This document shows, in pieces, positions 21,694-40,565 of a DNA stretch of 64,000 nucleotides. The notes under the pieces are model-generated. The model made no database searches, had not been told where the DNA came from, and worked only from the letters and a program-made list of their open reading frames with translations. Within the stretch, counting starts at the first letter, position 1, and the number at the start of each line of letters is the position of its first letter. This stretch comes from Gammaproteobacteria bacterium (GTDB lineage Bacteria; Pseudomonadota; Gammaproteobacteria; GRL18), in the NCBI GenBank assembly GCA_027012135.1, contig JALUZF010000137.1, forward strand, positions 946-64,945. The letters run 5' to 3'. The translations under genes and the position numbers were made by a program.

Positions 21694-21704
21694 GGGGAAT
21701 AAAT

Positions 21705-22453: not shown

Positions 22454-22507
22454 ATATTTTTATACTAGCAACATCATAATTAACATCTAAATATTGGAGT
22501 TTAAACA

Positions 22508-22843
22508 ATGGCTACTATTACTGTAGACGGTAAAGAGATCGAAGTAGACGAAGAAGGCTATCTGGTAAACCTGAGTGACTGGTTCCCAGCTGTAGCTGAA
22601 GAAATGGCTAAAATCGATGAAGTTGAACTAGGTGAAGATCACTGGGACATCATTAACTTCCTGCGTGAGTACTACGAAGAGTATCAAATTGCTCCAGCAG
22701 TACGTGTACTGACTAAAGCAGTTGCTAAAAAACTGGGTAAGGAAAAAGGTAACTCTAAGTACCTTTATGAATTATTCCCATATGGCCCTGGTAAGCAAGC
22801 ATGTAAATTTGCTGGTCTGCCTAAGCCAACTGGTTGTGTATAA
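22508..22843 (+). CDS. dsrC: DsrC
   Basis: 111 aa. The C-terminal arm CKFAGLPKPTGCV carries both redox-active cysteines. Confidence 0.95.
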   Translation: MATITVDGKEIEVDEEGYLVNLSDWFPAVAEEMAKIDEVELGEDHWDIINFLREYYEEYQIAPAVRVLTKAVAKKLGKEKGNSKYLYELFPYGPGKQACKFAGLPKPTGCV

Positions 22844-22888
22844 CACACAGTCGAAGACGAATTATCAGTTGTTTTAACTGAAATTCAT

Positions 22889-22940
22889 GTCTGGAAACGT
22901 GTTGTCAGGAGTTAAATTCTGGATAACACGCCTTCCAGAC
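22889..22940 (+). promoter_or_regulatory. Long hairpin between dsrC and dsrM
   Basis: gtctggaa-a-cgtgtt ... aacacg-cc-ttccagac gives 8 + 6 bp of stem. An A-rich tract follows rather than a U-run. Candidate attenuator or processing site. Confidence 0.5.
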
Positions 22941-22973
22941 ACCGTATTAAAAAATTATTAATGGGTAGGTAAT

Positions 22974-23717: not shown

Positions 23718-23836
23718 CCCTGTTGTCAACGGGTTGCCTGTTTGATGATTTATCCGTACAGGATCAGGCAACACAAACAAAACCAACATAGTTATTAGGG
23801 TCATTGTTATTAGGATTTTTTTGAGGATATAGAAAA

Positions 23837-25378: not shown

Positions 25379-25502
25379 TCCTGCTGTCGTCCTAAACCCG
25401 AACATAATTAACACTGAATTACTGTTTTAAGATAGAACGTATTTTAAGATACAAACTAGCAATTAATTTTTGCCCAAATATAGCTTGATAGGAGAAAGAT
25501 AA

Positions 25503-27485
25503 ATGTCAACTGCTGATACAGCTCCGAATGCAGAAAAACTAACCTTTACGCGTTTTAAGGACACACGGTTAGAACATACTGATAAACAAGAGTGGGATTC
25601 CTGGACTGACAATATTTTTCAGGCTGGTTGGTCACACAAATGTCCTACCTATATTAACAGAACTCCTCCTTGTCAAGGCAGTTGTCCTGCAGGTGAAGAT
25701 ATTCGTGGCTGGCTAGATATTGTACGCGGTGTTGAAAAGCCTGCCTTCGAAGGTATGACCATGCAGGAATATGCATTTCAGCGTTCAACAGATGCCAACC
25801 CATTCCCATCGGTTATGGGTCGAGTCTGTCCTGCACCCTGTGAAGACGGCTGTAACCGTAACGAACTTGATGATCATGTAGGTATTAACGCTGTTGAACA
25901 GTATATTGGTGACCAGGCTCGTGAAAACGGCTTTAAATTTAAGGTTGCTGATTCTGAAACAGGCAAAAAAGTCGCCATTATCGGTGGTGGTCCTGCTGGT
26001 CTGGCCGCAGCTTATCAACTGCGTCGTTTAGGTCATAGCTGTACCGTTTTTGATGATCATGCTGAACTGGGCGGAATGATGATGTACGGTATTCCAGGCT
26101 ATCGTGTGCCACGTGAAGTGCTGCATCATGAAATGAACCGTATTGTTGAGATGGGTGTGGACGTTAAATTAAATACCCGTGTCGGTACCGATGTAACAGT
26201 TGAAGATCTGGAAAAAGAATACGATGCTATTTTATGGGCCATCGGTTGTAAAGAAGGTCGTGGTCTGCCGGTTGAAGGCTTTGAAGAAGCGCCTAACTGT
26301 ATCAGCGGTGTTGCTTTCCTTGAGGCATTTAATGATGGTCGTCTGAAGCTGGCTTCTGACAAAGTTGTCTGTATCGGTGGTGGTGACACTTCTATTGACG
26401 TGGCATCCGTAGCTCGTCGTTTGGGTAAAATCTCCAATATTGCTGAAAAAGACTTACCAGAAAACGTAGTTCTTGGACATACCGCTCACGATGTGGCCGA
26501 TAGTGCTAATAAGGAAGGTGCAGAAGTTACTCTGTTATCTCGTTCTTCCATTGAGAACATGCCGGCAGCACAGCATGAAATCGACGATGCCCTGCGTGAA
26601 GGTGTGACTATTATTGGTTGCGTTAGCCCGATTAAAGTTATTCTGGATGAAAATGGTCGTGCAAAAGCACTGCGTGTTATCAAACTGGAAGAAGACGGCA
26701 AGACTCCAATTGAAGGTTCTGAATACGATATTGAAGCCACTCTTATTGTTTCTGCCATTGGTCAGAAAGGTGACATGACCGGTATTGAAGAGTTTGACAA
26801 TGGTCACGGCTTTATTGACGGTGATGCACACTACCAGGTTAAAGGCAAACCAGGACACTTCCTGGCGGGTGATATTGTACGTCCTCATCTGCTGACTACA
26901 GCCATTGGTCAGGCCGCTATTGCAGTTGAAACCATAGACCATTATCTGTGCCATCAGGACGAAGATCTGAAGAAACGTCCTAAAGTTGACAAGCATTACT
27001 TCAAACTTGAAAAGAAACTGGAAGAAGTAGGCCTGGCACCAAAACCTGCTCCGGTTCATGGCCATGAAAGTGTTCGTGGTACTTCAGAAGAAGATTTTGC
27101 AATTCATAACTATGAAGACCGATCCTCCAATGACATTATCAGCCATGACAAACTGTTCCTTGGACATTTTGAATATGAACCACGTCATAAGCGTAAAACT
27201 ATTGACGTAAGTTCTGATGAAGTTCTAGGTCACTTTGCAGAACGTCTGGTACCTCTGTCAGACGAAGAAGTCGTTGCAGAAGCCGGTCGTTGTATGAGCT
27301 GTGGTATGTGTTTTGAGTGTGATAACTGTGTTATCTACTGTCCACAGGATGCAGTTAAGAAGACACCTAAAGACAAAGCAACAACGGGTCGTTATGTTTA
27401 TACTGATTACTCTCGTTGTATTGGTTGTCATATCTGTAAAGATGTTTGTCCTACAGGCTATATTGATATGGGTCTGGGTGAATAA
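25503..27485 (+). CDS. dsrL: DsrL, NAD(P)H-dependent iron-sulfur flavoprotein
   Basis: 660 aa. GltD-like N-terminal Cys clusters, dinucleotide folds (IIGGGPAGLAAA, CIGGGDTSID) and a C-terminal 2x[4Fe-4S] ferredoxin (CMSCGMCFECDNC, CIGCHICKDVC). Confidence 0.9.
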   Translation: MSTADTAPNAEKLTFTRFKDTRLEHTDKQEWDSWTDNIFQAGWSHKCPTYINRTPPCQGSCPAGEDIRGWLDIVRGVEKPAFEGMTMQEYAFQRSTDANPFPSVMGRVCPAPCEDGCNRNELDDHVGINAVEQYIGDQARENGFKFKVADSETGKKVAIIGGGPAGLAAAYQLRRLGHSCTVFDDHAELGGMMMYGIPGYRVPREVLHHEMNRIVEMGVDVKLNTRVGTDVTVEDLEKEYDAILWAIGCKEGRGLPVEGFEEAPNCISGVAFLEAFNDGRLKLASDKVVCIGGGDTSIDVASVARRLGKISNIAEKDLPENVVLGHTAHDVADSANKEGAEVTLLSRSSIENMPAAQHEIDDALREGVTIIGCVSPIKVILDENGRAKALRVIKLEEDGKTPIEGSEYDIEATLIVSAIGQKGDMTGIEEFDNGHGFIDGDAHYQVKGKPGHFLAGDIVRPHLLTTAIGQAAIAVETIDHYLCHQDEDLKKRPKVDKHYFKLEKKLEEVGLAPKPAPVHGHESVRGTSEEDFAIHNYEDRSSNDIISHDKLFLGHFEYEPRHKRKTIDVSSDEVLGHFAERLVPLSDEEVVAEAGRCMSCGMCFECDNCVIYCPQDAVKKTPKDKATTGRYVYTDYSRCIGCHICKDVCPTGYIDMGLGE

Positions 27486-27493
27486 TCAGGAGA

Positions 27494-28078
27494 ATGAATG
27501 TGTGGTTGCAACTAAACATTAATTTTAGTTTTAGCTCCCTGCTTAAGGGGAGCTTGCAGAAATTACCACTCAGTGTTGCGGGGCTGGCTTTAATGGCCAG
27601 CTTCACTACTGTTAATGCAGAAGTAGAACAGGATGAACTGGGGCCGAGAATTGAAATTCCCGAATCCAGTGGTAAAAGCTGCGTACTGCCTGAAGACGAA
27701 ATTCGTCGGAAACATCCTGACATGCTTAAACATGATCGGATCCTGACGCTTCGTGAAGGTGTCAGAGCCAAAGCCGATGGTAATAATCTTGATGGTAGTT
27801 TAAAGCAGTGTATTAACTGCCATGCCATTAAAGATGATAACGATCAATATGTTCGCATTGATAATGACAAGCACTTCTGTGTTTCCTGTCATAAATATGC
27901 TGCAGTAACCATTGACTGTTTCCAGTGTCATAGAGACATTCCTGAAGGCAGTAGTAATTTTCATGCACTATCAGGTCATAAAAATACTGACTTCAGCTCC
28001 GTAACTCCAGGTAGTTATGGTTTGACAGTTAAGGATATGGCCAATATTGCCCCTGAGGTTAGTTCAGATGACAAGTAA
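27494..28078 (+). CDS. dsrJ: DsrJ, periplasmic triheme cytochrome c
   Basis: 194 aa. Signal peptide and three CxxCH motifs (CINCH, CVSCH, CFQCH). The exact start is uncertain (ATG 27494 or GTG 27500). Confidence 0.9.
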   Translation: MNVWLQLNINFSFSSLLKGSLQKLPLSVAGLALMASFTTVNAEVEQDELGPRIEIPESSGKSCVLPEDEIRRKHPDMLKHDRILTLREGVRAKADGNNLDGSLKQCINCHAIKDDNDQYVRIDNDKHFCVSCHKYAAVTIDCFQCHRDIPEGSSNFHALSGHKNTDFSSVTPGSYGLTVKDMANIAPEVSSDDK

Positions 28079-28805
28079 GATCGAAAAAGAAGATTTATCC
28101 CGTCGTAACTTTGTCTTTGGTTCGATTGCTGCAGCGGGTTTGACGGTTGCTCCGGGTGTTATGCTCTATCAGACTGCAAATGCTCGTGATTTGAGTAAAC
28201 CCGTCAGTTCAAAAGTCCGCTGGGGTATGTTAATCGATACCACTAAAGATGTTGACTGGAACAAATGTGTTGAAGCCTGTGTTAAAGAACATGGTCTGGG
28301 TAATGAAGAACATTCCAGAGCGGATCAGAGAACACAGTATATCCGGGTGGTTGATGTAAAAAATAAAACCACCGGCTATAGCATGTCATTACCGGTAATG
28401 TGCCAGCATTGTGAAAAGCCACCTTGCGTAGATGTCTGTCCAACAGGGGCATCCATGAAACGTGAAGACGGTATTGTACTGGTTGACAGACACCGCTGTA
28501 TTGGCTGTCGTTATTGTATGATGGCCTGTCCTTATAAGGCTCGCTCCTTTGTTCATGAAACACTGACTGATCAGAAAACAACGACCCCGCGTGGTAAGGG
28601 TTGTGTTGAATCCTGTAATATGTGTGTGAATCGTGTTGATAACGGTCAGTTGCCTGCCTGTGTAGAAGTCAGTGAAGGCGCTATTGTTTTTGGGGATCTT
28701 AATGATCCTGAAAGTGATATTTCCAGATTACTTGCCAAACATGGCGGTAAGCAGATTCGTGCAGACTTGAAACTGAACCCAGGTGTTCAGTATCAAGGCA
28801 TATAA
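28068..28805 (+). CDS. dsrO: DsrO, periplasmic ferredoxin-like subunit
   Basis: Tat motif SRRNFV just after ATG 28068. Multiple ferredoxin Cys clusters (CQHCEKPPCVDVC, CIGCRYCMMAC). Overlaps the dsrJ end. Confidence 0.9.
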   Translation: MTSKIEKEDLSRRNFVFGSIAAAGLTVAPGVMLYQTANARDLSKPVSSKVRWGMLIDTTKDVDWNKCVEACVKEHGLGNEEHSRADQRTQYIRVVDVKNKTTGYSMSLPVMCQHCEKPPCVDVCPTGASMKREDGIVLVDRHRCIGCRYCMMACPYKARSFVHETLTDQKTTTPRGKGCVESCNMCVNRVDNGQLPACVEVSEGAIVFGDLNDPESDISRLLAKHGGKQIRADLKLNPGVQYQGI

Positions 28806-28853
28806 CTTGTTTTTTAATAAGTATTAATTTACCTGGTGTAACGAGACTACAAA

Positions 28854-30056
28854 ATGAAAAAATTACACTTTCTAGAAGTTGAAGGGAATACCAAGGGTTT
28901 TTATACCTTCCTGGGAATTTTTGGTTTGATTTCCCTGATTGGCGTACTTGCTGCCTATTATATGGAACACCACGGACACTATGTTACTGGAATGAGTAAT
29001 CAGGTGGTCTGGGGCACACCGCATGTATTTGCAATTTTCCTGATTGTTGCGGCCTCTGGAGCTCTTAATGTGGCTTCTATATCATCAGTCTTTGCCAAAA
29101 CGGCTTATAAACCGCTGGCTCGTTTATCAGGTATGTTGGCTATGGCTCTTCTGGCTGGCGGTCTGGTGGTACTGCTGCTGGATCTGGGTCGTCCTGATCG
29201 ACTGATTGTAGCTATGACCAGGTTTAACTTTGTGTCTATCTTTACCTGGAATATTTTCCTCTATACTGGTTTTATGGGTATAGTTGCAATTTACTTATGG
29301 ACCATGATGGACAGACCTTATAACAATCTGACTAAAAAAGCAGGTATGGTTGCCTTTATCTGGCGTCTTATCCTGACCACTGGTACCGGTTCTATCTTTG
29401 GCTTCCTGATCTCCCGTGAAGCTTATGATACGGCTTTACTGGCTCCTATGTTCATTATTATGTCTTTTTCATTTGGTCTGGCTTTCTTTATGCTGGTGTT
29501 AATGGCCTCTTATAAATATACTGACCGTCCACTGGGTGACTATGTCATCAATCGCCTGAAAAATCTGCTGGGTGTGTTTGTTGCCGCGGTTCTGTATTTT
29601 GTTATTGTTTATCATATTACTAATCTGTATTCTGCGGATCATCGCGGTGTTTCCATTTTTGTCCTTTCCGCAGGTGGTATATACACCTTCCTGTTCTGGG
29701 TCGTTCAAATTGGTCTGGGTACCGTATTACCTTTATTCCTGTTATACGGTCCTACGGGTAAAAACCGTACTATGATTGGTCTTGCCTCCCTGCTTATTAT
29801 TATAGGTGCACTGGCCCAGTTATACATTATTATTATCGGAGGGCAGGCCTATCCAATGGTAATGTTCCCAGGTATGGAAGTCAGTTCCTCCTTTTATGAT
29901 GGGGTAGTGGCCTCTTATGCGCCATCTCTGCCAGAAGTTCTGCTGGGTCTGGGTGGTGTTGGTGTGACCTTATTGCTGGTCACTATCGCAGTAGCTGCAC
30001 TGAAATTCCTGCCAGCCAGTCTCGCTGATGAAGTAGTAGACCCTCATGCAAAATAA
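28854..30056 (+). CDS. dsrP: DsrP, NrfD/PsrC-type integral membrane subunit
   Basis: 400 aa, about 10 TM segments, in the canonical last position of dsrMKJOP. Confidence 0.9.
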   Translation: MKKLHFLEVEGNTKGFYTFLGIFGLISLIGVLAAYYMEHHGHYVTGMSNQVVWGTPHVFAIFLIVAASGALNVASISSVFAKTAYKPLARLSGMLAMALLAGGLVVLLLDLGRPDRLIVAMTRFNFVSIFTWNIFLYTGFMGIVAIYLWTMMDRPYNNLTKKAGMVAFIWRLILTTGTGSIFGFLISREAYDTALLAPMFIIMSFSFGLAFFMLVLMASYKYTDRPLGDYVINRLKNLLGVFVAAVLYFVIVYHITNLYSADHRGVSIFVLSAGGIYTFLFWVVQIGLGTVLPLFLLYGPTGKNRTMIGLASLLIIIGALAQLYIIIIGGQAYPMVMFPGMEVSSSFYDGVVASYAPSLPEVLLGLGGVGVTLLLVTIAVAALKFLPASLADEVVDPHAK

Positions 30057-30154: not shown

Positions 30155-30832
30155 TCAGGTATCTGCCCACATTTGTACCAGTTTAATATAGGTAACATCC
30201 ACGCCCTGTGTTTCATCAGCCTGGGGTTTTTCTCTCAAAAGTTTTTCCCGCGCCTGCCATAACTCGTAAAGTACCTCACGCTTATTGGCATCCTGGATCA
30301 TGCTCTGAGCCCAGGTGACGCATACCAGACGTTCTCCATCCGTCACCTTATCCACATAATGCCAGCTGGTAGAAGGATAGACAATGGCACTGCCGGCTTT
30401 TAAACGGGCACGGTGTTCCCCGTATTTGGTGACAATAACCAGGTCTCCACCTTCGTATTCTGACGGATCATTTAAAAAAATAGTGGTAGAGACATCGGTC
30501 CGGTACATATTGGGCATCTGACCCATAATCGGGTTGTCGATGTGTCCACCATAGCCCATGCCTTTTCGATACCGGGCAAGAAAGGGGGCGCCGATTTTTT
30601 TCATCATGACAGCGGCTTTATAAATTTCGTTATTTATCAGGCTGCCCATCAGAATATTATTGAGAGACTGCATCTGTGGTGAACCATCCTGAACCAGTTC
30701 CTCGTTGTTTTTAACCTGCTGTGCCACGTCTCCGGCCGATATTTTACCGTCCACAAAACTGGCCTGTTTTAATACCGCCTGTATGGATTTAAGTTGCTGA
30801 GGATTAATAACGTCAGGGATCTCAAGTAACAT
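30155..30832 (-). CDS. PKHD-type Fe(II)/2-oxoglutarate hydroxylase (PiuC/YbiX-like)
   Basis: 225 aa from ATG 30832 (GGAG 6 nt upstream). Collinear with E. coli YbiX. HxD (GGHIDN) and a distal His (TSWHYV). Confidence 0.85.
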   Translation of the reverse strand: MLLEIPDVINPQQLKSIQAVLKQASFVDGKISAGDVAQQVKNNEELVQDGSPQMQSLNNILMGSLINNEIYKAAVMMKKIGAPFLARYRKGMGYGGHIDNPIMGQMPNMYRTDVSTTIFLNDPSEYEGGDLVIVTKYGEHRARLKAGSAIVYPSTSWHYVDKVTDGERLVCVTWAQSMIQDANKREVLYELWQAREKLLREKPQADETQGVDVTYIKLVQMWADT

Positions 30833-30929
30833 GACTAACTCCATAGTGATAATTTTTATTACTTGAAGTTTACGAGATTATCCCCATATAGACTATACAT
30901 TTTTTATTTATTCTTGATATGGGGCAACT

Positions 30930-31265
30930 ATGATAAGGGTTTTAAATGTCGTTATTGACGGTAATATGTATTCAGTCAATGTGGAAGAGGAAATACTGAT
31001 GTCAGCGACTGATCTGTTTGATAAAATGGATCAGGATATGAGTAAGGGCTGGACACTGGGACGTGATTTTGTTGAAAATCCCAATATCACGGAACGTTGC
31101 CAGATTGTCGCTGATAAATTACTAACCGCCATAGAAGATGAGAATGAACAGATGAAATCCATGATGGCGGGGTATATTCTTTCCCGGGTTCCCAATATTA
31201 TGACACTTTATATTGATAATACCGGTGAAATACAGGAAACCCAGATCGAACTGGCACCTCAGTAA
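30930..31265 (+). CDS. Hypothetical protein (111 aa)
   Basis: Clean ORF followed closely by the next gene. No recognised domain. Confidence 0.5.
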   Translation: MIRVLNVVIDGNMYSVNVEEEILMSATDLFDKMDQDMSKGWTLGRDFVENPNITERCQIVADKLLTAIEDENEQMKSMMAGYILSRVPNIMTLYIDNTGEIQETQIELAPQ

Positions 31266-31296
31266 AATTCTTGATCAGAGTACAGGATTAGAAAAA

Positions 31297-31851
31297 ATGC
31301 GCATAAAATCCAAATGGGGTAAAAATAAAAAAGAACGCAGTGTAGAAGACAATGCCAGTGCAGCGGCCTTTATTGCCTGGAAAGTTGCCCAGGATGCCTT
31401 GCTTAACCTTGAGAATGAAGACTATCAGACCGATACCCTCAAGCAGAGAATGGATGTGGTGGTAGAATTTGTTATCTACCTGGCACACCTGGCTGATCGT
31501 ATTACTTATGAACAAATGACCCCGGAAGAACGGGAAGCCTTTGTGGTATCTATGGTTAAACATTTAGCGCGCAATGTACAGTCCAGTATGGAAGATATTG
31601 AAGGTGTCAAAGACTATAAGGAAAATTTCATTAACCTGGTTAATGAAAGAATGTCTGACTATGCTGAAATGCCCTTTGATGATGGTGAACCCAGCTTTAC
31701 CATGCGCCGTTACCTGGGTACCCGGGTACAGGAAGTTATGGGTGAACGACACAATAAATGGATCGAAACTCAGGTACTGGAAATCAATGCTCCGGAAGCT
31801 GCCAGGCACCTTAAAAAAGCCATTAACGATCTATACAAACCCGCTTTTTAA
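31297..31851 (+). CDS. Hypothetical protein (184 aa)
   Basis: ATG 31297 preceded by AGGA. The track ORF starts at an upstream TTG that overlaps the previous gene. No recognised domain. Confidence 0.55.
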   Translation: MRIKSKWGKNKKERSVEDNASAAAFIAWKVAQDALLNLENEDYQTDTLKQRMDVVVEFVIYLAHLADRITYEQMTPEEREAFVVSMVKHLARNVQSSMEDIEGVKDYKENFINLVNERMSDYAEMPFDDGEPSFTMRRYLGTRVQEVMGERHNKWIETQVLEINAPEAARHLKKAINDLYKPAF

Positions 31852-32015: not shown

Positions 32016-32756
32016 TTGACATTAAGTCCTCTTTATTTTCAGGAAATCCGGGAACATCATTTATTTAAAGAGCTGTCGGATGACTGTTTTGAGCACGTTA
32101 TTCAAAATGCCGGGGTTCTGTTTTTAAAGAAAAATGAACTCTTATACGAATGTGGTTTAAAAGCCCGACAGTTCTTTCTTATCCATTCCGGGCAAATCGC
32201 CTTATTTCAGATGTCCCTGGACGGCAACGAAAAAATTATTAATCTGTATGATTCGGCTCAAGTGTTTGCAGAAGATATCATGTTCAGTGATGAAAAATGC
32301 TACCCAACCTGTGCCCGGGCCTGCAGCGATACCACGTTATTTTATTTTGATGCTCAGCACTTTCGCAGGCAGTTGTATGACTATCCCGGTCTGTGTTTTT
32401 CTATTATGTCCGATCTTAGTTCCCGGCTGCATGAGCAGATTCAGGAAATAGTTGAGCTGTCTATTTATGATGCCCAGTACCGTCTGATCAGATATTTACT
32501 TAAGAAAGCCTGCAAGGGGGATTTACAGTCCTGCCGGCCTGTTATTGTGCTGGCGACCACCAAAACACTGCTGGCTTCCAGACTGTCAATTACACCGGAA
32601 ACGTTTTCCAGAATACTCTCCAGATTAAAAAAGCAGGGATTGATCTCTATTGATGAGTCTGTGATAACGCTGAATGAACCGGAACTGCTGAAACAGCTTA
32701 TTGGTTATAATGAATGCTCTTTTTCAACCGAAAAACAGATGGTTTCTGTGGTTTGA
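32016..32756 (+). CDS. Crp/Fnr-family transcriptional regulator
   Basis: 246 aa, TTG start. N-terminal cNMP-binding-like domain and C-terminal HTH (TKTLLASRLSITPETFSRILSRLKKQGLI). No N-terminal FNR Cys cluster. Confidence 0.8.
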   Translation: MTLSPLYFQEIREHHLFKELSDDCFEHVIQNAGVLFLKKNELLYECGLKARQFFLIHSGQIALFQMSLDGNEKIINLYDSAQVFAEDIMFSDEKCYPTCARACSDTTLFYFDAQHFRRQLYDYPGLCFSIMSDLSSRLHEQIQEIVELSIYDAQYRLIRYLLKKACKGDLQSCRPVIVLATTKTLLASRLSITPETFSRILSRLKKQGLISIDESVITLNEPELLKQLIGYNECSFSTEKQMVSVV

Positions 32757-32815
32757 TTTTTCTGAGACTTAAGCCTTAAGGGTAAATCTTAGGCAATTGA
32801 GCATAAAAAGTACAT

Positions 32816-32848
32816 AAAAAAACCGGCTAATAAAAGCCGGTTTTTTAT
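32816..32848. terminator. Bidirectional rho-independent terminator
   Basis: aaaaaaaccggct-aataaa-agccggtttttt, between convergent genes. Confidence 0.75.
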
Positions 32849-32907
32849 GCTATAAATAGGTTTTATACCTGCAGGATTCAGGTATAAAACTTAAATATAA
32901 GGAAATA

Positions 32908-33099
32908 TTATTTCCAGTCAGCGTAGCCTTCCATATTCTTTTCCAGGCCGTCTTCATAACCAGCACTGTAGGCTTCGGTAACACGTTGTTCTTCACGTTC
33001 CGGGTTACATACATAACCACCTTGCCAACCCTGGATATACTCCGGGTTTACACCTTCAGATTCCATTTTTACAGTAAAATCATGATATTCTTGGTTCAT
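32908..33099 (-). CDS. Small hypothetical protein (63 aa)
   Basis: Isolated ORF with the terminator downstream. No recognised domain. Confidence 0.5.
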   Translation of the reverse strand: MNQEYHDFTVKMESEGVNPEYIQGWQGGYVCNPEREEQRVTEAYSAGYEDGLEKNMEGYADWK

Positions 33100-33569
33100 A
33101 GGTTTTTCCTTTACGTTTCCAGTCAGTTAAAATCGTATGAGCATATAAGCAGACTGTGACAAAATAATAATTCGCTTATATTAAATGATCTTTATATAAA
33201 TTTCCAGTAATAGCCTGAAAATTTCTAATAGCATTTGCTATTGTTTGTGACTACCTGGCCACAGGCCAAACCTGAAGTTTATTTGTAGCACAAATAGGGC
33301 TCAGATTCTGCTTAGAATCTGACTGCATGTGAGTATACTTACTGGACAGCCTCAACGGTATATCTCTATAGGATAGGATTGAAAAAAATTTTGTGAATAT
33401 TATAAAAAAGGGTATTATTTTATAATTAACCAAGTAATTTACTCGGATATTATGGTAGAATATTTCTATTCGAGAATGGAACAATAGCATTCTTATGTCC
33501 AATATCATTTTTCATATATTAACTGGAAAATATGATATTAAAAAGCGAGCGAATAAGTAGAGATAAACA

Positions 33570-34001
33570 ATGAACTTAACTGAAGAAGATATGATGGATC
33601 TGGACAGCGGCCTTAAAGCCCTGGAAGACAAGCACTTTACCCGTGCTGTACAATTATTATCCCCCCTGGCTGAAAAAGGGGTACCTGAAGCCCAGCACCG
33701 TATGGCGGTCATGTACCAGAATGGGCTGGGTGTCCATCGAAATGAAACGGCTGCAGCCCTGTGGATGAAAATGGCAGCCGATGGCGGTTATGAACTGGCC
33801 TGGCATGGTATGGGTTTTATGTATATGGAAGGCGAAGGTGTTGATAAAAATGCTGAAGAAGCCGTTAAATGGTTTAAAAAAGGCATTGAAGCCGGACTGA
33901 TTGGCTCCATGACTACCCTGGCTATGATGTATAAGGAAGGTAATGGTGTAGAACAGGATCTGGAAGAAGCCGAGCGGCTGATGAAACAGGCTGGGTTTTA
34001 A
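33570..34001 (+). CDS. Cytoplasmic Sel1-repeat protein
   Basis: 143 aa, no signal peptide. Three Sel1-type repeats (AQHRMAVMYQNGLGV, GMGFMYMEGEGV, LAMMYKEGNGV). Confidence 0.85.
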   Translation: MNLTEEDMMDLDSGLKALEDKHFTRAVQLLSPLAEKGVPEAQHRMAVMYQNGLGVHRNETAAALWMKMAADGGYELAWHGMGFMYMEGEGVDKNAEEAVKWFKKGIEAGLIGSMTTLAMMYKEGNGVEQDLEEAERLMKQAGF

Positions 34002-34028
34002 ATAAAAGATTAAGATAGCGAGAATTAA

Positions 34029-35072
34029 ATGAGAGCGTCACAACTATTTACCGTCCTGGACCAGGAATTTGAAGGTACTAAAACCGGACACCATACCCCG
34101 GTAATGATCTGGGGGCCGCCGGGCGTGGGTAAATCCCAGTTAGTCAGCCAGGTCGCCCAAAAGCATGATCGTACCCTGATTGATATTCGTCTGTCCCAGA
34201 TGGAACCCAGTGATTTACGGGGTATTCCGTTTAAGGATGGTGATAAAGTGGAATGGGCAGTACCTTCTATGTTGCCGGATGTTCAAAAACACGGTGCAGA
34301 AGGTATTCTGTTTCTGGATGAAATCACCTCTGCACCACCCAGTGTATCTGCTGCGGCATATCAGCTTATTCTGGATCGCCGTCTGGGGGATTATCAGATC
34401 CCTGACGGCTGGGCAATTTTTGCCGCCGGTAACCGTCAGGGTGACCGCGGGGTCACCTATAGTATGCCGGCACCGCTGGCTAACCGTTTTTCCCATTATG
34501 AATTTGATATTAACCTGGATGACTGGGTACACTGGGCTTACCAGAGTGGTATTGATGAGCGGGTTATTGCCTTCCTGCGTTTTCGTCCGGATCTGTTATT
34601 TGATTTTGACCCGGCCCATAATCCGGTGGCTTTCCCATCTCCCCGTACCTGGGAGTTTGTGCATAAGGCTCTGAATAAATTTATGGATCATCCTGAACTG
34701 TTCCTGGGTGCTCTGCAGTCCTGCGTCGGTCCTGCGGCCGGTATTGAGCTTAATGCCTTTATTGCCAACCTGGATGAAATGCCGGATCTGGATGCCATTA
34801 TTAATGGAGAAGATGTACCCACCCCTTCAGAAATCGATCTGCAGTATGCCGTGGCCTCCGCTCTGGTAGGACGTGCTATTCGGGCTAAAGGTACAGATGA
34901 AGCGAATAAAACTTATACCAATATCCTCAGGTACGCATCCAGTTTCCGCCAGAAAGAAATGGGGGTAATGCTGGTTTCTGATATGCACCGGGCCATTGGT
35001 GAAGAGCTTTTCAGTGTTGAAGAATTTGCTAACTGGGCGGATGCCATAGCCGATATTATGTTGTATGGATGA
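34029..35072 (+). CDS. MoxR-class AAA+ ATPase
   Basis: 347 aa. Walker A GPPGVGKS, Walker B ILFLDEIT, and MoxR-like LDRRLGDYQIPDGWAIFAAGN and ANRF motifs. Confidence 0.85.
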   Translation: MRASQLFTVLDQEFEGTKTGHHTPVMIWGPPGVGKSQLVSQVAQKHDRTLIDIRLSQMEPSDLRGIPFKDGDKVEWAVPSMLPDVQKHGAEGILFLDEITSAPPSVSAAAYQLILDRRLGDYQIPDGWAIFAAGNRQGDRGVTYSMPAPLANRFSHYEFDINLDDWVHWAYQSGIDERVIAFLRFRPDLLFDFDPAHNPVAFPSPRTWEFVHKALNKFMDHPELFLGALQSCVGPAAGIELNAFIANLDEMPDLDAIINGEDVPTPSEIDLQYAVASALVGRAIRAKGTDEANKTYTNILRYASSFRQKEMGVMLVSDMHRAIGEELFSVEEFANWADAIADIMLYG

Positions 35073-36336
35073 AGCAATAAGCAATAAACTCAGTGCTGCG
35101 CGCACTAAACTGATTCTGGACAAACCTTTCCTGGGTGCTCTGGTGCTGCGTCTGCCGATTGTTGAAGCCGATCCGTCCTGGTGTAAAACCACTGATACGG
35201 ATATGAAAAAGCTTTATGTTAATCCTGAGTACATTGACCAGTTAACCACTGAAGAAGCACAGTTTGCCCTGGCTCATGAAGCGCTGCACTGCGCCCTGTC
35301 GCATTTTTCCCGCCGTCAGCACAGAGTTAAAATGCGCTGGGATATGGCCTGTGACTATGCCATTAATCCTATTCTGATTGAAGACGGCCTCAGGCCGCCT
35401 CCGCATATTCATTACCTGCGTGAATTTGCCGGTATGACGGCAGAAGAGATTTATCCGCTGTTAATGGATAATGAAAATGATGCTGACAGTGAGCTGGGGC
35501 AGAATAATGAAGCTGGTGACAAGGAAAGCGGGGAACAGTCTGATCACGGCGATGCCAAAGACACGGAAACTCAGAAGCTGAACAGCCAGCAGCAGGATAA
35601 TGGCAAAGAAGGTAAGGGACAGACTTCGGAAGAGGGCAAACAGTCTGAGCAGGGCAGTGGTGATGATATTCAGAAAGAACCGCCGCCGACACCCAATAAT
35701 GATGAAATACAGAGTCTGACGGCCCAATGGCAGCAACGACTGGCCGGTGCCGCCCAGCAGGCGTTACAGGCCGGTAAGCTAAGCCAGTCCATGGCACGTC
35801 TGGTGGATCACCTTCTGCAGCCGCAACTGCCCTGGCGTATGCTGCTGGCACGTTATATGAGTGCTACCGCCAGAGAAGATTACAGCTATACCCGGCCATC
35901 CAGCCGGCGAGGTGAACCGGCCATCTATCCGCGTCTGCGCAGTCATATGGTGGATATTGTGGTGGCCCTGGATATCAGCGGCTCTATTGCCACCAAAGAA
36001 ATTAAGGAGTTTCTAGCGGAAGTGGACCAGATTAAAGCCCAGGTACGTGCCCGTATTACCCTGCATGCCTGTGATACCGAAGTCAGTACTGAGGGACCCT
36101 GGGAATATGAACCCTGGGATGAGCTGAAACTGCCCATCCAGTTTCAGGGCGGCGGCGGTACCCGTTTTACACCGGTATTTGACTGGGTTGAAAATCAGGA
36201 GAAACGCCCCGACCTGTTAGTGTACTTTACTGATGCAGAAGGCGAATTTCCCGAGCAGGAGCCGCAGTACCCGGTACTCTGGCTGGTAAAAGGTAGAGCC
36301 CCCGTACCCTGGGGACAGCGGGTCCAGTTAAATTAA
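35065..36336 (+). CDS. VWA-domain protein with N-terminal HExxH metallopeptidase-like domain (DUF2201-type architecture)
   Basis: 423 aa. 8-nt overlap with the AAA+ gene. HEALH motif, an acidic/Gln-rich low-complexity linker, and the MIDAS motif DISGS in the C-terminal VWA domain. Confidence 0.8.
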   Translation: MDEAISNKLSAARTKLILDKPFLGALVLRLPIVEADPSWCKTTDTDMKKLYVNPEYIDQLTTEEAQFALAHEALHCALSHFSRRQHRVKMRWDMACDYAINPILIEDGLRPPPHIHYLREFAGMTAEEIYPLLMDNENDADSELGQNNEAGDKESGEQSDHGDAKDTETQKLNSQQQDNGKEGKGQTSEEGKQSEQGSGDDIQKEPPPTPNNDEIQSLTAQWQQRLAGAAQQALQAGKLSQSMARLVDHLLQPQLPWRMLLARYMSATAREDYSYTRPSSRRGEPAIYPRLRSHMVDIVVALDISGSIATKEIKEFLAEVDQIKAQVRARITLHACDTEVSTEGPWEYEPWDELKLPIQFQGGGGTRFTPVFDWVENQEKRPDLLVYFTDAEGEFPEQEPQYPVLWLVKGRAPVPWGQRVQLN

Positions 36337-36349
36337 CATAAAGAACACT

Positions 36350-37522
36350 ATGGCATTATCCAACGAAGACAGTTTAAGATTAAATGTATTACTGGCCCAG
36401 GATGTTCGTGCAATCCGCATTGATGAAGGTAAGCTGATACTTTATGCCCTGACTCAAAAAGGTGAAGCTAAAATTCAGCTTAATCCGAATACCCGTAACC
36501 ATAAATATATCAAGGAAGTTAAAGACTTTCTATCTACCAAAGCACTGGGTGTATCCGGTGGTTTTCCCATGTTCCTGTCCCGCTGGAACCGTATGGGCGA
36601 TGTACAGAGTAATCGTCTGGATAAACTTTTATTGCTGGGTGAAGAAGAAGCCGTAACGGCGGTAGTCAACAACCGGGATTTGACGGCTGAACTGGCAAAA
36701 AGTGCCTGGTGGGCCGTACAGTCATCTGAAAATGCCCGCAGTATGCTGGCCAATAAAGCGGTAGCAGAAGGTGAAATTGGTAAGGAACTGGCAAAGTTTC
36801 TGATTGAATTTCTGCCCTTTGAGGAAGATCCGCTGGATATGATGATTTCAGCACGTCTGGTACTGCAGGAAGGGCTGATTTCAGAAGATGAAGTCCTGAG
36901 CCTGTGGCGCAAGGCCAAAAGTAAAAATACCCTGTATGTAGGCTTTCTGGATGTCCGTCCTGATAATCTGCCGGAACCTGTTGCTGAGCATCCTCGTTAT
37001 GAAGAAGTTAAGCAGGCATTATCTGAGCAGCTTAAAGCTGCAAATCCCTATGCCGAGGTTTTATGCAAGCTGTTCAGTTCACAGGGACAGACCTTTTTAA
37101 AAACCGCCGATGCCTCGTTTAAGCGTCCGCCCAATTATGATGTAGTTGGCGCTTTAATTGAAGCTATAAGACGTTATCTGTTTATTAAGCAACCTGAAGC
37201 CGGCCAGAATCAGCAGCACCATGAACAGGGGCTGGATTTAAACGGTGAAATCCAGACCGATATTAACAAAGTTGTGGAGCTGGCAGAAAATATTGCCAAT
37301 GAAAATAATGGTATCTGCTGCAGTGGTGAATTAAAAGCCGTAAGGGAGGCGGTTCCGGACTTTGCCGACCATCTCCAGGCCATTGTCTTTTTAGGCAGAA
37401 CCACCCAGACCGTGCTGGCACCTACTATTGCCAAAAGTACTGCCGTGGGTTCATTAATGCGTAAAAAACTGAAACCGGTTTTTGATCCCATACAGATGAA
37501 CCTGAGAATATTAAGCAGTTAA
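36350..37522 (+). CDS. Hypothetical cytoplasmic protein (390 aa), third gene of the MoxR/VWA operon
   Basis: 13-nt gap after the VWA gene. Largely helical-looking sequence with no motif I can assign. Confidence 0.6.
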   Translation: MALSNEDSLRLNVLLAQDVRAIRIDEGKLILYALTQKGEAKIQLNPNTRNHKYIKEVKDFLSTKALGVSGGFPMFLSRWNRMGDVQSNRLDKLLLLGEEEAVTAVVNNRDLTAELAKSAWWAVQSSENARSMLANKAVAEGEIGKELAKFLIEFLPFEEDPLDMMISARLVLQEGLISEDEVLSLWRKAKSKNTLYVGFLDVRPDNLPEPVAEHPRYEEVKQALSEQLKAANPYAEVLCKLFSSQGQTFLKTADASFKRPPNYDVVGALIEAIRRYLFIKQPEAGQNQQHHEQGLDLNGEIQTDINKVVELAENIANENNGICCSGELKAVREAVPDFADHLQAIVFLGRTTQTVLAPTIAKSTAVGSLMRKKLKPVFDPIQMNLRILSS

Positions 37523-37662
37523 ATAATGAGTATTAACTATCGCAGTAATATTTTGTAAAAATATTAAATAATTACCGGATATGGTATTATAAAAAGTTAA
37601 TATTCTTATTTTACCGCCCTGAATTCAGAATAAGCAGAGCAAAAAGCAGAGGTAGAAAACAA

Positions 37663-39105
37663 GTGGATTTTTTCCCCATTTTCATGAACATTAGAAATCG
37701 TCAATGTGTGGTTATTGGCGGTGGCAAGGTCGCAGCCAGAAAAATTGCTTTATTGCTTAAGGCTGGTGCACAGGTACAGGTAGTGGCGCCTGAATTGTGC
37801 CGTGAGGTCAGCGAGATGGCTAAAACCGGGCAGATAAAACATTATGCCCGGGCCTTTGATGAAAAAGATATTTGTGACAGCAGCCTCTGTGACAGTGTAC
37901 TGGTTATTGCCGCCACAAATAATCAGAGCGTAAACGAAAAAGTCTCCGAACTGGCCAAAGCACGTTCCATGCCGGTCAATGTGGTGGATCAGCCGCATTT
38001 ATGCAGTTTTATTATGCCGTCCATTGTGGATCGTTCACCTATTCAGATTGCCATTTCCACCGGCGGCAGTTCGCCGGTACTGGCCCGCTTACTGCGTACC
38101 CGCCTGGAAAGCTATATTCCTGCGGCTTACGGTAAACTGGCACAGCTGGTCGACGGCTTTCGCAGCAAGGTCATTGAAAAATTTCCCAATAGCGAACAGC
38201 GCCGTTATTTCTGGGAAAACGTCCTGGAAGGTCGTATTCCTGAACTATTATTCCAGGGCAATGAACATGCAGCCCGCTATGCCCTGCAAAAAGCCATTGA
38301 TGAAGATTTTTCTGAAGAAAGCGGGGAAGTCTATCTGGTGGGAGCCGGTCCCGGTGATCCCGATTTGCTGACTTTCAGAGCCCTGCGCCTGATGCAGAGA
38401 GCTGATGTGGTGGTGTATGACCGTCTGGTATCCCAGGGGATCCTGGATCTGGTACGCCGTGATGCCGAGCTGGTCTATGTCGGCAAGGAAAGAAATAACC
38501 ATGCGGTACCGCAGGAGGGCATTAATGAATGTCTGGTGCGTTATGCTAAAGAAGGTAAACGGGTTTTACGTCTTAAGGGCGGTGATCCTTTTATCTTCGG
38601 ACGCGGCGGGGAAGAAATTGAAACGCTGAAAGAAAACAATGTTATTTTTCAGGTGGTACCCGGTATTACCGCTGCAGCCGGTTGTGCCAGCTATGCCGGT
38701 ATTCCGCTGACTCATCGTGATTATGCCCAGTCCTGTGTGTTTGTAACCGGGCATTTAAAAGACGGCACAGTCAACCTGAACTGGACAGCCCTGGCGCATC
38801 CTAATCAGACTATTGTTTTCTATATGGGCTTACAGGCAGTAAATGTGATCCATAAGGAGCTGGTGGCGCATGGCTTAAAAGATGAAACACCTGCGGCCCT
38901 TGTTGAACAGGGTACTACTGAAAACCAGCGTGTCCATGTCGGTACACTGGCCACTCTGGCGGATATAGTGGAACGGGAAAAAGTGAAAGCCCCTACACTG
39001 ATTATTGTCGGTGATGTAGTGACCTTACATGATAAATTGAAATGGTTTAATCCGAATTCAGAACGCACTTCATCGTTTCAAAGTGCTCGTGGCCGGCGGG
39101 ATTAA
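37663..39105 (+). CDS. cysG: Siroheme synthase (multifunctional CysG)
   Basis: 480 aa, GTG start. N-terminal GGGKVAARK dehydrogenase/ferrochelatase module and C-terminal SUMT module (VYLVGAGPGDPDLLT, GGDPFIFGRGGEE). Confidence 0.95.
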   Translation: MDFFPIFMNIRNRQCVVIGGGKVAARKIALLLKAGAQVQVVAPELCREVSEMAKTGQIKHYARAFDEKDICDSSLCDSVLVIAATNNQSVNEKVSELAKARSMPVNVVDQPHLCSFIMPSIVDRSPIQIAISTGGSSPVLARLLRTRLESYIPAAYGKLAQLVDGFRSKVIEKFPNSEQRRYFWENVLEGRIPELLFQGNEHAARYALQKAIDEDFSEESGEVYLVGAGPGDPDLLTFRALRLMQRADVVVYDRLVSQGILDLVRRDAELVYVGKERNNHAVPQEGINECLVRYAKEGKRVLRLKGGDPFIFGRGGEEIETLKENNVIFQVVPGITAAAGCASYAGIPLTHRDYAQSCVFVTGHLKDGTVNLNWTALAHPNQTIVFYMGLQAVNVIHKELVAHGLKDETPAALVEQGTTENQRVHVGTLATLADIVEREKVKAPTLIIVGDVVTLHDKLKWFNPNSERTSSFQSARGRRD

Positions 39106-39129
39106 GTAAAGAAGAACAGATAAAGAAAA

Positions 39130-39225
39130 TCAGACAAAGAAAATACTTAACACCAGATAAAGCGAAAGCATGAGCCCGGTAAAAGCAATACCGATGGTGC
39201 TCATAAATAGATAAACCTGTCTCAT
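39130..39225 (-). CDS. Candidate 31-aa hydrophobic small protein (below the ORF-track cutoff)
   Basis: Hand-translated as MRQVYLFMSTIGIAFTGLMLSLYLVLSIFFV-stop. AGGAAG lies 5 nt upstream of the ATG. One predicted TM helix. Convergent with cysG. Confidence 0.3.
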   Translation of the reverse strand: MRQVYLFMSTIGIAFTGLMLSLYLVLSIFFV

Positions 39226-39444
39226 ACTGGCTTCCTTAAATCTGATCAGTTTTTTTCTTATTCGTTTTCTAAACTATAAAATGATTAAGCTATGAAGTCT
39301 GCAAGACAAGTCTGATCCTTTTGTAGGAATGATTTTATTATCTGTAGGACTTAAGCTGAATAAAACAGTTGAACAAAATGCTATACATTTACAATGTATG
39401 AATACAAAAGCTAATTAAAAGTTAATTTGAAAAAGGTAAATACA

Positions 39445-39714
39445 ATGGATTTTAATTCCCTCACTAAAGAACAGCAGGTTATGGTAGCCATGCGTAAAAC
39501 CCTGGCCAATATCGTTAAGGATACTACACCTTCTGACCCGGCTCTGGTTCACCCTTTAAGTAAAGATACTGTGGAAGATATTCGTGCCTGCTTTGCACTG
39601 ATTTCAGCCAGGGAAAGAGAATTAATGGAAGAGCTGGGCATAGAAAATAAAGCCCGTCCGTTTTTTACGGATGAAGTAAAACCAGCCGAAGTGGTTAAAT
39701 TTAAAAAGAAATAA
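39445..39714 (+). CDS. Hypothetical protein (89 aa)
   Basis: ATG 39445 is preferred over the upstream TTG. No recognised domain. Confidence 0.5.
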   Translation: MDFNSLTKEQQVMVAMRKTLANIVKDTTPSDPALVHPLSKDTVEDIRACFALISARERELMEELGIENKARPFFTDEVKPAEVVKFKKK

Positions 39715-39725
39715 TATGCGTGAGG

Positions 39726-39763
39726 TTCCTTCTCCCTTTGGGAGAAGGTCAGGATGAGGGGGC
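39726..39763 (+). repeat. REP-like element, copy 2 (CCTTCTCCC-TTT-GGGAGAAGG followed by TCAGGATGAGGG)
   Basis: Same architecture and orientation as 12552-12587. Located between convergent genes. Confidence 0.6.
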
Positions 39764-39792
39764 TTTTAAAGCTGTAACTATTTATTTAACTG

Positions 39793-40335
39793 TTATTTAT
39801 CTGAACGCTTACGTTTTGAACGGCGCTTTCGTTCAGGCAGTTTAAAATTGATAATAGATTTAACCACTTCATTATAAGGAATTTTGTCCAGACTCTGGTA
39901 TTTAGCCACTGTTTCATTAATAGTGCCGTGTACATTCTCAATAGGGGCACGTTCCTGAGCCTGCTCACCAAAGCGGGCATCCTCATCACTTAAAATGGTG
40001 GTATCGGCCAGATTCTTATCGGCCAGTAACTGCTGCAGTCCATAAATTCCACCCACCTGTACTTTAATTTCCTTAGCATGAGGCAGAGGGCCGTTAGCCT
40101 GAGTAATTTGTAAAGCAAAGCGGGCATTGGCACGAAGGTTGTCCAGTAATCTTCGGCACTGCTGCTGGGCCACGGCATCTTTACAGGCAAAGGCTTCCCG
40201 TTCTGCCAGTAATAACTTTTCAGCCTGTTCACACTGACCGTAACGCAGTAACAGCAGTTTTTCAAAGTAACAGCGGGTCGGGTTCATTTCCCGATACGCT
40301 GACCGGTACTGCTCCTCGTCCATTACTTTTCCCAT
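39793..40335 (-). CDS. Hypothetical protein with four N-terminal Cys and a Lys/Arg-rich tail (180 aa)
   Basis: Clean ORF overlapping the upstream 80-aa gene by 13 nt. Family not recognised. Confidence 0.6.
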   Translation of the reverse strand: MGKVMDEEQYRSAYREMNPTRCYFEKLLLLRYGQCEQAEKLLLAEREAFACKDAVAQQQCRRLLDNLRANARFALQITQANGPLPHAKEIKVQVGGIYGLQQLLADKNLADTTILSDEDARFGEQAQERAPIENVHGTINETVAKYQSLDKIPYNEVVKSIINFKLPERKRRSKRKRSDK

Positions 40336-40565
40336 TCCTTGAGAATAGGCTGTTCTCTGTGTTCACCGAGTTTTTCTTCAGCATCCAGAGGGTTGTCCGC
40401 AAAAATAACCTTGAAGGTATCCTGAGGATCATTGTCAGGGTTCATACGCTGCTCCCTGGCGTAATTGCGAGCTTCTTTATAAGTCTCAAATTCATCCAGC
40501 ATTTCCATGGGCTTAACCAGGTTAGCAACAGTGGGTGAAATTTTGTAAACGAAATAAGAGGCCAT
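40323..40565 (-). CDS. Hypothetical protein (80 aa)
   Basis: Clean ORF, first gene of a two-gene minus-strand operon. Confidence 0.6.
   Translation of the reverse strand: MASYFVYKISPTVANLVKPMEMLDEFETYKEARNYAREQRMNPDNDPQDTFKVIFADNPLDAEEKLGEHREQPILKEWEK

Follow-up and report, generated by a model that had tools for sequence, protein, structure and literature searches.

A compact operon between dsrP and cysG

We analysed a 64,000-nucleotide (nt) stretch of DNA from a gammaproteobacterium of the GTDB lineage GRL18 (GenBank assembly GCA_027012135.1, contig JALUZF010000137.1, positions 946 to 64,945 of the forward strand), referred to below as the window. Between dsrP, the last gene of a dsr operon, and the siroheme synthase gene cysG lies a module of four genes, encoding a Sel1-repeat protein, a MoxR-class AAA+ ATPase, a DUF2201-type adaptor with a von Willebrand factor A (VWA) domain, and DsrS; a DsrN candidate is also nearby (Table 1). 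The module begins 3.5 kb after the dsr operon, and 6.3 kb lie between the end of dsrP and the start of dsrS. An initial annotation, made from the sequence without database searches, had described a tight operon built around a MoxR-class AAA+/VWA pair, and this is upheld by the open reading frames (ORFs) and by Pfam; indeed, the coordinates, spacers and motifs it gave for the five genes were all reproduced from the ORF list. The Sel1 and MoxR genes are 27 nt apart, the MoxR and VWA genes overlap by 8 nt (ATGGATGA), and spacers of 13 nt and 140 nt separate VWA from dsrS and dsrS from cysG. All four module proteins are acidic (isoelectric points, pI, of 4.8 to 5.8), and none has a hydrophobic segment, so they are predicted to be cytoplasmic. 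This agrees with the earlier description of the first gene product as a cytoplasmic Sel1-repeat protein: it has three Sel1 repeats (Pfam, 1.6e-24) and a pI of 4.8.

The ATPase has a Walker A motif (GPPGVGKS, amino acids [aa] 29-36, 34113-34136), a Walker B motif (ILFLDE, aa 93-98, 34305-34322), a sensor 1 FAAGN, a PLANRF arginine-finger region and an SPRTW sensor 2, and its catalytic motifs are invariant or nearly so in 55 orthologues. Pfam scores it above the cut-off for AAA_5 (37.6 bits, cut-off 22) and AAA (34.4 bits, cut-off 21.2); AAA_3, the model of MoxR proper, gives 21.7 bits against a cut-off of 27. The best sequence matches in the PDB are midasin AAA domains, CbbQ (E = 1e-5) and NorQ (E = 2e-5), and homologues are named "MoxR family ATPase" by NCBI. 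On these matches we assign the protein to the CbbQ/NorQ/midasin-like side of the MoxR class.

The adaptor matches two Pfam families, PF13203 (DUF2201_N; 1.9e-47, 162.6 bits, cut-off 23.2), which carries an HExxH motif in the form HEALH, and PF09967 (DUF2201/VWA; 3.8e-25, 88.8 bits, cut-off 26.4), which carries the DISGS of a metal ion-dependent adhesion site (MIDAS). The MIDAS (DxSxS...T...D) is complete, with D303, S305, S307, T366 and D390 each kept in 60 of 60 orthologues. In the HExxH region H75, H80, C76 and C96 are kept in all 60 as well, H71 in 55 and E72 in 58. An AlphaFold2 (AF2) model (predicted local distance difference test, pLDDT, 71) suggests a structured N-domain, a disordered linker, a helical segment, a disordered basic stretch and a VWA domain. 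The linker varies from 57 to 109 aa among orthologues, and the basic stretch holds the invariant residues D272, Y273, Y275, R277, P278, S279, R281, P289, R292 and S293. The C-terminal domain resembles the integrin I and VWF A2 domains (Foldseek probability 1.0); the VWA domain dominated the fold search and was the only part of the model recognised. A PDB sequence search gave only a marginal match, to the minigluzincin MJ1213 near the HExxH motif (E = 0.12), and the Joint Genome Institute (JGI) names homologues "predicted metal-dependent peptidase".

The fourth protein had been placed in no known family. It does lack a matching model in Pfam and NCBIfam, but its homologues are annotated "sulfur reduction protein DsrS": 1,960 were found, and named examples are 69-74% identical over 99-100% of the length. 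By this NCBI naming, and by Table 9 of PMC10892978, in which a protein named DsrS by the Prokaryotic Genome Annotation Pipeline (PGAP) is equated with Allochromatium vinosum Alvin_1265, the fourth gene is assigned as dsrS. Its product is 40% identical to the DsrS of Thioalkalivibrio sulfidiphilus, and a profile search resolved the family into 526 clusters at 50% identity, all single-domain and of about 350-390 aa. The AF2 model of DsrS (pLDDT 91.3, predicted template modelling score 0.86) combines a small N-terminal beta-sheet with an all-helical repeat body. Searches of the PDB and BFVD with this fold returned no match below E = 0.1, with a generic ARM/HEAT/TPR-like resemblance only. The protein has two conserved elements, a flexible loop (GGFPMFLSRWNRMG, aa 70-83) and a C-terminal motif, GSLMRKKLK (aa 367-375); it contains no invariant Cys or His. 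Because the helical-repeat model is confident, no Cys or His is invariant, the protein is acidic and the family is single-domain, DsrS looks like an interaction scaffold and not an enzyme.

In size the A. vinosum DsrS is presumably similar to the window protein (about 41-43 kDa). The two belong to the same NCBI family, and the window copy is, as predicted, cytoplasmic and is dsr-linked. In A. vinosum dsrS is the last gene of the operon dsrABEFHCMKLJOPNRS and has its own promoter (PMC3368242), and in Chromatiaceae it directly follows dsrR (PMC10892978). Unlike in the window, dsrS of A. vinosum and Thiocapsa comes directly after dsrN-dsrR, and no Sel1, MoxR or VWA genes are reported there (PMC3368242, PMC10892978). 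For Thioalkalivibrio and for Sulfurifustis/Sulfuricaulis, genome papers record only that dsrS lies "elsewhere in the genome". The literature searched contains no mention of dsrS together with MoxR, AAA+, von Willebrand/VWA or Sel1. Deletion of dsrS is said to slow the oxidation of stored sulfur, and DsrS reportedly affects dsr expression post-transcriptionally.

Table 1. Module genes, parts of the adaptor and associated features, in positions of the window
Feature	Position	Strand	Basis or remark
Sel1-repeat protein, 143 aa	33570-34001	+	Pfam Sel1
MoxR-class AAA+ ATPase, 347 aa	34029-35072	+	AAA_5, Walker motifs
DUF2201-type VWA adaptor, 423 aa	35065-36336	+	PF13203 + PF09967
DsrS, 390 aa	36350-37522	+	NCBI naming of homologues
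cysG siroheme synthase, 480 aa	37663-39105	+	NF007922
Adaptor, metallopeptidase-like N-domain	aa 1-135		HEALH at aa 71-75 (35275-35289)
Adaptor, disordered acidic/Gln-rich linker	aa 136-200 (35470-35664)		
Adaptor, conserved disordered basic segment	aa 271-293 (35875-35943)		
Adaptor, VWA domain	aa 295-423		MIDAS DISGS at aa 303-307 (35971-35985)
dsrABEFHCMKLJOP operon, presumed client system	18777-30056	+	Pfam, NCBIfam, ORFs
DsrN candidate (siroheme a,c-diamide synthase type)	14655-16142	-	CobB/CfbB family
AT-rich region upstream of module	33100-33569	+	putative promoter region
Crp/Fnr-family regulator	32016-32756	+	upstream of module

Conservation and co-inheritance of the module

A DsrS profile gave 555 confirmed loci in GTDB species-representative genomes, and the 80 best-scoring were taken with 10-kb flanks. 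Neighbours were called by tblastn of the window proteins against these 80 loci, 58 of which have at least 3.6 kb upstream of dsrS. The resulting counts leave out A. vinosum and the Chromatiaceae, where dsrS was studied genetically. A naive ORF caller mis-called some high-GC loci, which are consequently missing from the DsrS tree described below; the tblastn counts are unaffected. The order Sel1-MoxR-VWA-DsrS was found at 44 of the 58 loci, with the VWA/MIDAS partner gene adjoining the MoxR gene in each. Eleven others have Sel1 followed directly by DsrS, two have MoxR-VWA-DsrS with Sel1 undetected, and at one locus none of Sel1, MoxR and VWA lies beside DsrS. A Sel1 gene is found directly 5' of MoxR, or of DsrS itself, in 55/58. 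The full order is kept although DsrS is just 42-48% identical to the window protein, and because it recurs in 44 of 58 species-level genomes at such divergence, the arrangement is far beyond chance.

The four proteins also diverge in step. Among 36 distant loci with the full module, mean identity to the window is 45% for DsrS, 57% for Sel1, 58% for VWA and 75% for MoxR, and when matrices of pairwise identity are compared between the four proteins over 40 complete modules, r is 0.90-0.96. In the same 40 modules mean pairwise identity is 79% for MoxR vs 54% for DsrS. MoxR is the most constrained of the four. On a neighbour-joining tree of DsrS the full module spans the tree; the loci with Sel1 and DsrS only fall in one or two clades, and few gain or loss events therefore need be supposed. 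Candidatus Thioglobus was the only name obtained for the representatives of distant DsrS clusters.

Reverse look-ups gave the same association, since a DsrS gene adjoins both of the MoxR homologues looked up (77% identity) and the VWA homologue (61%). The latter is from Thioalkalivibrio sulfidiphilus HL-EbGr7 (locus L083, 8829-12614; within CP001339.1 2,402,365-2,423,648). Its MoxR-VWA-DsrS trio is flanked by a chemoreceptor gene and by unrelated genes, and neither Sel1 nor dsrAB nor cysG is nearby. Since the trio is isolated there, the MoxR-VWA-DsrS coupling is independent of its flanks. The trio also occurs without Sel1 at L042 and L067. A foreign-DNA test by third-codon-position G+C content (GC3) put the module genes inside the spread of the rest of the window and so gave no indication of recent transfer. 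At one locus (L086) the module is intact except that a PDDEXK_3 gene (127 aa, 11082-11465) separates MoxR from VWA.

The ATPase and adaptor belong to a much wider MoxR+DUF2201 family, for which we know of no characterised function. The ATPase matches the phage family phrog_1297 (3e-98) and the adaptor phrog_1314 (2.8e-92), both over the full length, and relatives of the adaptor at 21-35% identity number 644 phage records and 123 plasmid records. In N4-like phages and Vibrio phage D520 the pair sits in a replication module beside a Dda helicase and a DNA polymerase, on Synechocystis pSYSA it sits among toxin-antitoxin-like genes, and on a Ralstonia plasmid among hypothetical genes. The pair is thus a portable two-gene module. 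Its phage and plasmid versions (N4-like, rV5-like and jumbo phages; plasmids of Burkholderia, Rhodococcus and Synechocystis) share with ours the two-gene architecture, the domain content and an ATPase gene immediately upstream of or near the VWA gene. They differ in their low identity, in having no DsrS or Sel1 partner, and in their replication-module or plasmid accessory context. Identity within the DsrS-linked clade is at least 57%, as against the 21-35% to phage and plasmid relatives, and this clade is a specialised, vertically inherited branch of the family. The association of homologous operons with sulfur or siroheme genes, which the initial annotation had set as a test of its proposal, has a divided outcome: the wider family in phages and plasmids shows none, and the orthologous clade stays linked to DsrS. 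Phage homologues in phrog_1314 are widely labelled "HNH endonuclease" or "homing endonuclease" (records H27, H29, H37, H38, H42 and H45; for example, L090 3968-5092). Their domain content disagrees, and the "HNH endonuclease" label looks like a propagated mis-annotation.

A candidate remodelling machine and its competitors

We propose, with moderate confidence, that the module encodes a client-specific MoxR-VWA remodelling machine in which DsrS and Sel1 serve as adaptors for a protein of the reverse-Dsr pathway of sulfur oxidation, most likely DsrAB. The machine is modelled on NorQ/NorD because the DUF2201 adaptor shares the N-domain/linker/VWA logic of NorD. In NorQ/NorD a single VWA protein plugs the pore of the MoxR hexamer, and the ATPase remodels the linker of this adaptor, leading to metal insertion into the client; the authors suggest that the binding mode is general for MoxR/VWA couples (PMC9976466, PMC13036017). 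If CbbQ/CbbO and NorQ/NorD are a guide, the ATPase would assemble into a hexameric ring on which one DUF2201 adaptor would dock via its VWA domain. The element pulled by the ring could be the basic segment at aa 271-293 or the long acidic linker, and clients would be recognised jointly by the HExxH N-domain of the adaptor, DsrS and Sel1. Powered by ATP hydrolysis, the ring would remodel a protein of the Dsr pathway, in all likelihood DsrAB or a DsrAB-DsrC complex, with maturation, activation or release from a dead-end state as the outcome. DsrAB or DsrAB-DsrC is the most plausible client because deletion of dsrS reportedly slows the oxidation of stored sulfur, because the window module sits between dsrP and cysG, and because dsrS in A. 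vinosum is part of the dsr operon, with its own promoter (PMC3368242). The analysis shows which genes are present, how their motifs and order are conserved, that they are inherited together, how their domains are arranged and that the surroundings lack defence genes; from this genomic context we infer that the proteins form a complex, that DsrS and Sel1 act as adaptors, which client is handled and what remodelling achieves.

The closest functional parallels are CbbQ/CbbO, the Rubisco activase, and NorQ/NorD, which acts in FeB insertion into the c-type nitric oxide reductase (cNOR). Like them, the module pairs a small AAA_5-type ATPase with a VWA protein whose MIDAS is intact, lays out its adaptor as N-domain, long flexible linker and VWA domain, and seems devoted to one redox- or metallo-enzyme pathway, here judged by gene context. 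Unlike them, it has a DUF2201_N HExxH N-domain in place of the CbbO/NorD type and the extra conserved partners DsrS and Sel1, and it is usually not beside the genes of its presumed client enzyme. The sequence similarity is distant, and the module is not an orthologue of CbbQO or NorQD. It would instead represent a MoxR-VWA chaperone-type module with a new type of adaptor, new partners and a new pathway.

A more specific version, which we put forward tentatively, would make DsrS the client-recognition subunit of a "Dsr activase" that rescues, matures or activates reverse-acting DsrAB or DsrAB-DsrC, much as CbbQO rescues inhibited Rubisco. In that case the MoxR+DUF2201 pair, which N4-like and jumbo phages also carry, would gain in DsrS its first assigned cellular partner and in the Dsr pathway its first candidate client. 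DsrS has so far been an orphan, with no domain, no fold relative and only a mild deletion phenotype; its operon context replaces "function unknown" by a concrete mechanism that can be tested, for one step of sulfur oxidation by the Dsr pathway, which is of global importance in symbionts, sediments and oxygen-minimum zones. The MoxR+DUF2201 family, with thousands of members that include conserved genes of N4-like phages, likewise gains a first candidate cellular partner. A minimal version, MoxR-VWA-DsrS, is present in a cultured organism with a complete genome (T. sulfidiphilus HL-EbGr7, CP001339.1).

Several observations weigh against the machine as proposed. At 11 of the 58 loci Sel1-DsrS occurs without an adjacent pair, so DsrS can work without an adjacent MoxR-VWA; Chromatiaceae, in which dsrS directly follows dsrR with no pair adjoining it, point to the same capacity (PMC10892978). 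In most lineages the module is not beside dsrAB: another dsr gene lies within 10 kb of dsrS at just 9 of the 28 loci of at least 18 kb. The wider MoxR+DUF2201 family turns up among phage replication genes and on plasmids that have nothing to do with sulfur, and the 80 best-scoring loci are biased towards relatives of the window DsrS. The post-transcriptional role that DsrS reportedly has in dsr expression is not obviously chaperone-like. Finally, the basis of the proposal is genomic context throughout.

The initial annotation had suggested a role in siroheme or DsrAB maturation from the position of the operon next to cysG. Its tie to the Dsr system stands, by way of the conserved DsrS; the argument from cysG does not, since cysG lies within 1.5 kb downstream of dsrS at only 19 of the 61 loci with enough DNA, and at 10 of 38 loci with the full module. 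In the window and every close relative (L001, L004, L006, L008, L010-L013, L015 and L063) it follows dsrS directly, and it is absent nearby from the other 42 and 28 loci, respectively. Adjacency of cysG is thus a trait of certain lineages, constant in the clade of the window alone, and the gene is not a component of the module. We therefore regard it as unlikely, if still the foremost of the competing explanations, that the machine inserts siroheme or siroamide into apo-DsrAB, or handles siroheme in the manner of a chelatase, coupled to CysG and DsrN. Apart from the local cysG, this explanation can call on the DsrN candidate in the window and on cofactor insertion by MoxR/VWA pairs such as NorQD (PMC9976466, PMC13036017); the chelatases BchID and CobST are AAA+/VWA pairs too. 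Indeed, the class I chelatases BchI/BchD/BchH and CobS/CobT/CobN resemble the module in having an AAA+ ATPase, a VWA/MIDAS subunit, a third, helical protein and a neighbour in the tetrapyrrole pathway, as cysG is here. However, Pfam and NCBIfam reveal no BchH- or CobN-like large, tetrapyrrole-binding subunit in the module, DsrS has just 390 aa, no fold match and no invariant Cys or His to ligate a cofactor, and the VWA protein is without the AAA-like N-domain of BchD/CobT. Moreover, no DsrN homologue occurs within 10 kb of dsrS at any of the 80 loci, and the ATPase matches the cobS-type phage family phrog_249 ("porphyrin biosynthesis") only weakly and in part (1.7e-11).

Somewhat less probable is a switch based on regulated proteolysis, in which the adaptor would be an active HExxH zinc peptidase and the ATPase would unfold or present its substrate (DsrS itself, a regulator or a Dsr protein), thereby setting Dsr protein levels post-translationally. 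Such a switch would fit the post-transcriptional effect reportedly exerted by DsrS. The HExxH motif is largely kept, H75, H80, C76 and C96 are invariant, and both the weak match to minigluzincin MJ1213 and the JGI label point the same way. Yet 5 of the 60 orthologues have lost the first His and 2 the catalytic Glu. Because these orthologues keep everything else, catalysis looks dispensable. The fold search, dominated as it was by the VWA domain, gave no peptidase match, and no characterised MoxR-VWA system is known to act as a protease.

We give rather little credence to a third possibility, that the functional unit consists of DsrS and Sel1, which might regulate dsr expression or serve as a scaffold for it, and the pair is a hitch-hiking general stress chaperone without a Dsr-specific client. 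The 11 Sel1-DsrS loci without the pair would be explained by it, as would the Chromatiaceae, whose dsrS is in the dsr operon with the pair not adjoining (PMC10892978). Against it, the pair is lodged exactly between Sel1 and DsrS with spacers of a few nt, an arrangement retained over deep divergence; MoxR-VWA-DsrS persists at three loci without Sel1; and MoxR is under much stronger constraint than its neighbours.

The initial annotation had also raised a conflict or signalling module. The precedent is the vWA-MoxR ternary systems (Kaur, Burroughs, Iyer and Aravind 2020, PMC7159879), which likewise add extra conserved partners to a MoxR-vWA couple. This suggestion did not hold up: PADLOC returned nothing significant, with weak P-loop-level matches only (best 1.3e-5; none for the VWA protein or DsrS), the bpMoxR profile scored the ATPase at 19 bits, below its cut-off of 27, and the module has no effector domain. 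A search of the operon and its conserved neighbours for the partners that define those systems (VMAP, inactive STAND [iSTAND], FtsH, beta-propeller) found none. There are no defence genes among the conserved neighbours of the DsrS loci, which are DsrS, Sel1, 2-oxoglutarate (2OG) oxygenases, DUF6866, glutaredoxin and CysG. It is very improbable that the module serves in conflict or defence, or is left over from a mobile element and merely lies near dsrS: its phrog_1297 and phrog_1314 matches, its phage and plasmid relatives and the toxin-antitoxin-like surroundings of the pSYSA pair are outweighed by vertical co-inheritance with DsrS over its tree, by a GC3 within the window range and by the gap in identity between the clade and those relatives.

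Flanking regions and recurrent neighbours

The AT-rich region ahead of the Sel1 gene probably holds the promoter of the operon. It contains several sigma-70-like sites at 33391-33536, but no more than shuffled sequence does; neither the promoter scan nor the terminator scan rose above shuffled counts as a whole. The Crp/Fnr gene upstream is closed by a bidirectional terminator-like hairpin (32817-32846). This regulator, which also precedes the module in the close relatives L001, L002, L004, L005 and L015, prompted a search for FNR/CRP boxes (TTGAT-N4-ATCAA). No site was found within 32715-40475, which includes the upstream region of the module; window-wide, FNR-type boxes number 71 vs a shuffle mean of 54, a marginal excess in that 1 of 100 shuffles reached 71. 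Between the Crp/Fnr and Sel1 genes lies an ORF of 63 aa on the minus strand (32908-33099; MNQEYHDF...DPEYIQGWQGGY...). Homologues are found just upstream of Sel1 in at least eight loci, and also at L086 and L088 (64-aa genes); the homologue examined had no Pfam match.

Downstream, CysG is identified by NF007922 (8e-199, 661 bits, cut-off 400) and four Pfam domains, and carries an NAD-binding dehydrogenase/ferrochelatase N-domain and an SUMT methylase C-domain. The spacer that separates its gene from dsrS is AT-rich, and the scan found no terminator-like site in it. An Rfam scan of 30-41 kb gave sub-threshold chance matches alone, with no riboswitch ahead of cysG.

The dsr operon was recognised from Pfam NIR_SIR matches for DsrA and DsrB, an NrfD match for DsrP and the architecture of DsrL, together with NCBIfam matches for DsrM and DsrK and the ORFs of DsrE, DsrF, DsrH and DsrC. 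The DsrN candidate, likely a siroheme amidase, scores 2.3e-128 and 4.6e-126 against the CobB/CfbB family; its gene is divergent and upstream of the dsr operon, in A. vinosum dsrN instead follows dsrP. An IscA-like dsrR did not turn up in those window ORFs that were compared with Pfam or NCBIfam. Elsewhere, the dsr genes near dsrS are dsrAB (3 loci), dsrL/J/O/P (6 loci) and a gene for a DsrC paralogue, which 10 of the 80 loci carry no more than 10 kb away, as do the looked-up loci L083, L086 and L088.

Other genes recur around the module. Upstream of it are two proteins that Pfam does not recognise, one of about 185-212 aa (31213-31851, plus strand, in the window) in 40 loci and one of 111 aa (30930-31265, plus strand) in 17. 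A PiuC-like 2OG-Fe(II) oxygenase (30155-30844, minus strand) occurs in 22 loci; in more distant genomes there are a second 2OG-Fe(II) oxygenase (26 loci) and DUF6866 (34 loci). Immediately after or abutting dsrS, 33 of the 80 loci encode a protein of about 180 aa that Pfam likewise does not recognise (for example, L029 11294-11836, L042 4803-5342 and L043 11140-11679), which may be a fifth component of the module; it has no homologue in the window, where cysG occupies that position. A glutaredoxin gene is directly 3' of dsrS in 22 loci (for example, L061 4033-4293, L011, L048, L057 and L069), standing between dsrS and cysG where cysG follows, as at L061, and the window homologue is 15 kb away at 52636-52893. 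EgtB-like/EgtD-like genes of the ergothioneine/ovothiol type come after the module in nine loci (for example, L043 11696-13990), and together with the glutaredoxins they hint at a thiol-redox theme.

Just upstream of dsrA, and divergent from it, the window has a stand-alone gene of the Cas6/Cmx6 family (17181-17864, minus strand; TIGR02807, 1.3e-31); Tandem Repeats Finder detected no CRISPR-like array in the window. At nine of the 80 loci (L022, L031, L033, L041, L048, L049, L065, L072 and L074) and at L086, a homologue of this Cas6-like gene adjoins a gene for a DsrC paralogue that precedes the DsrS module.

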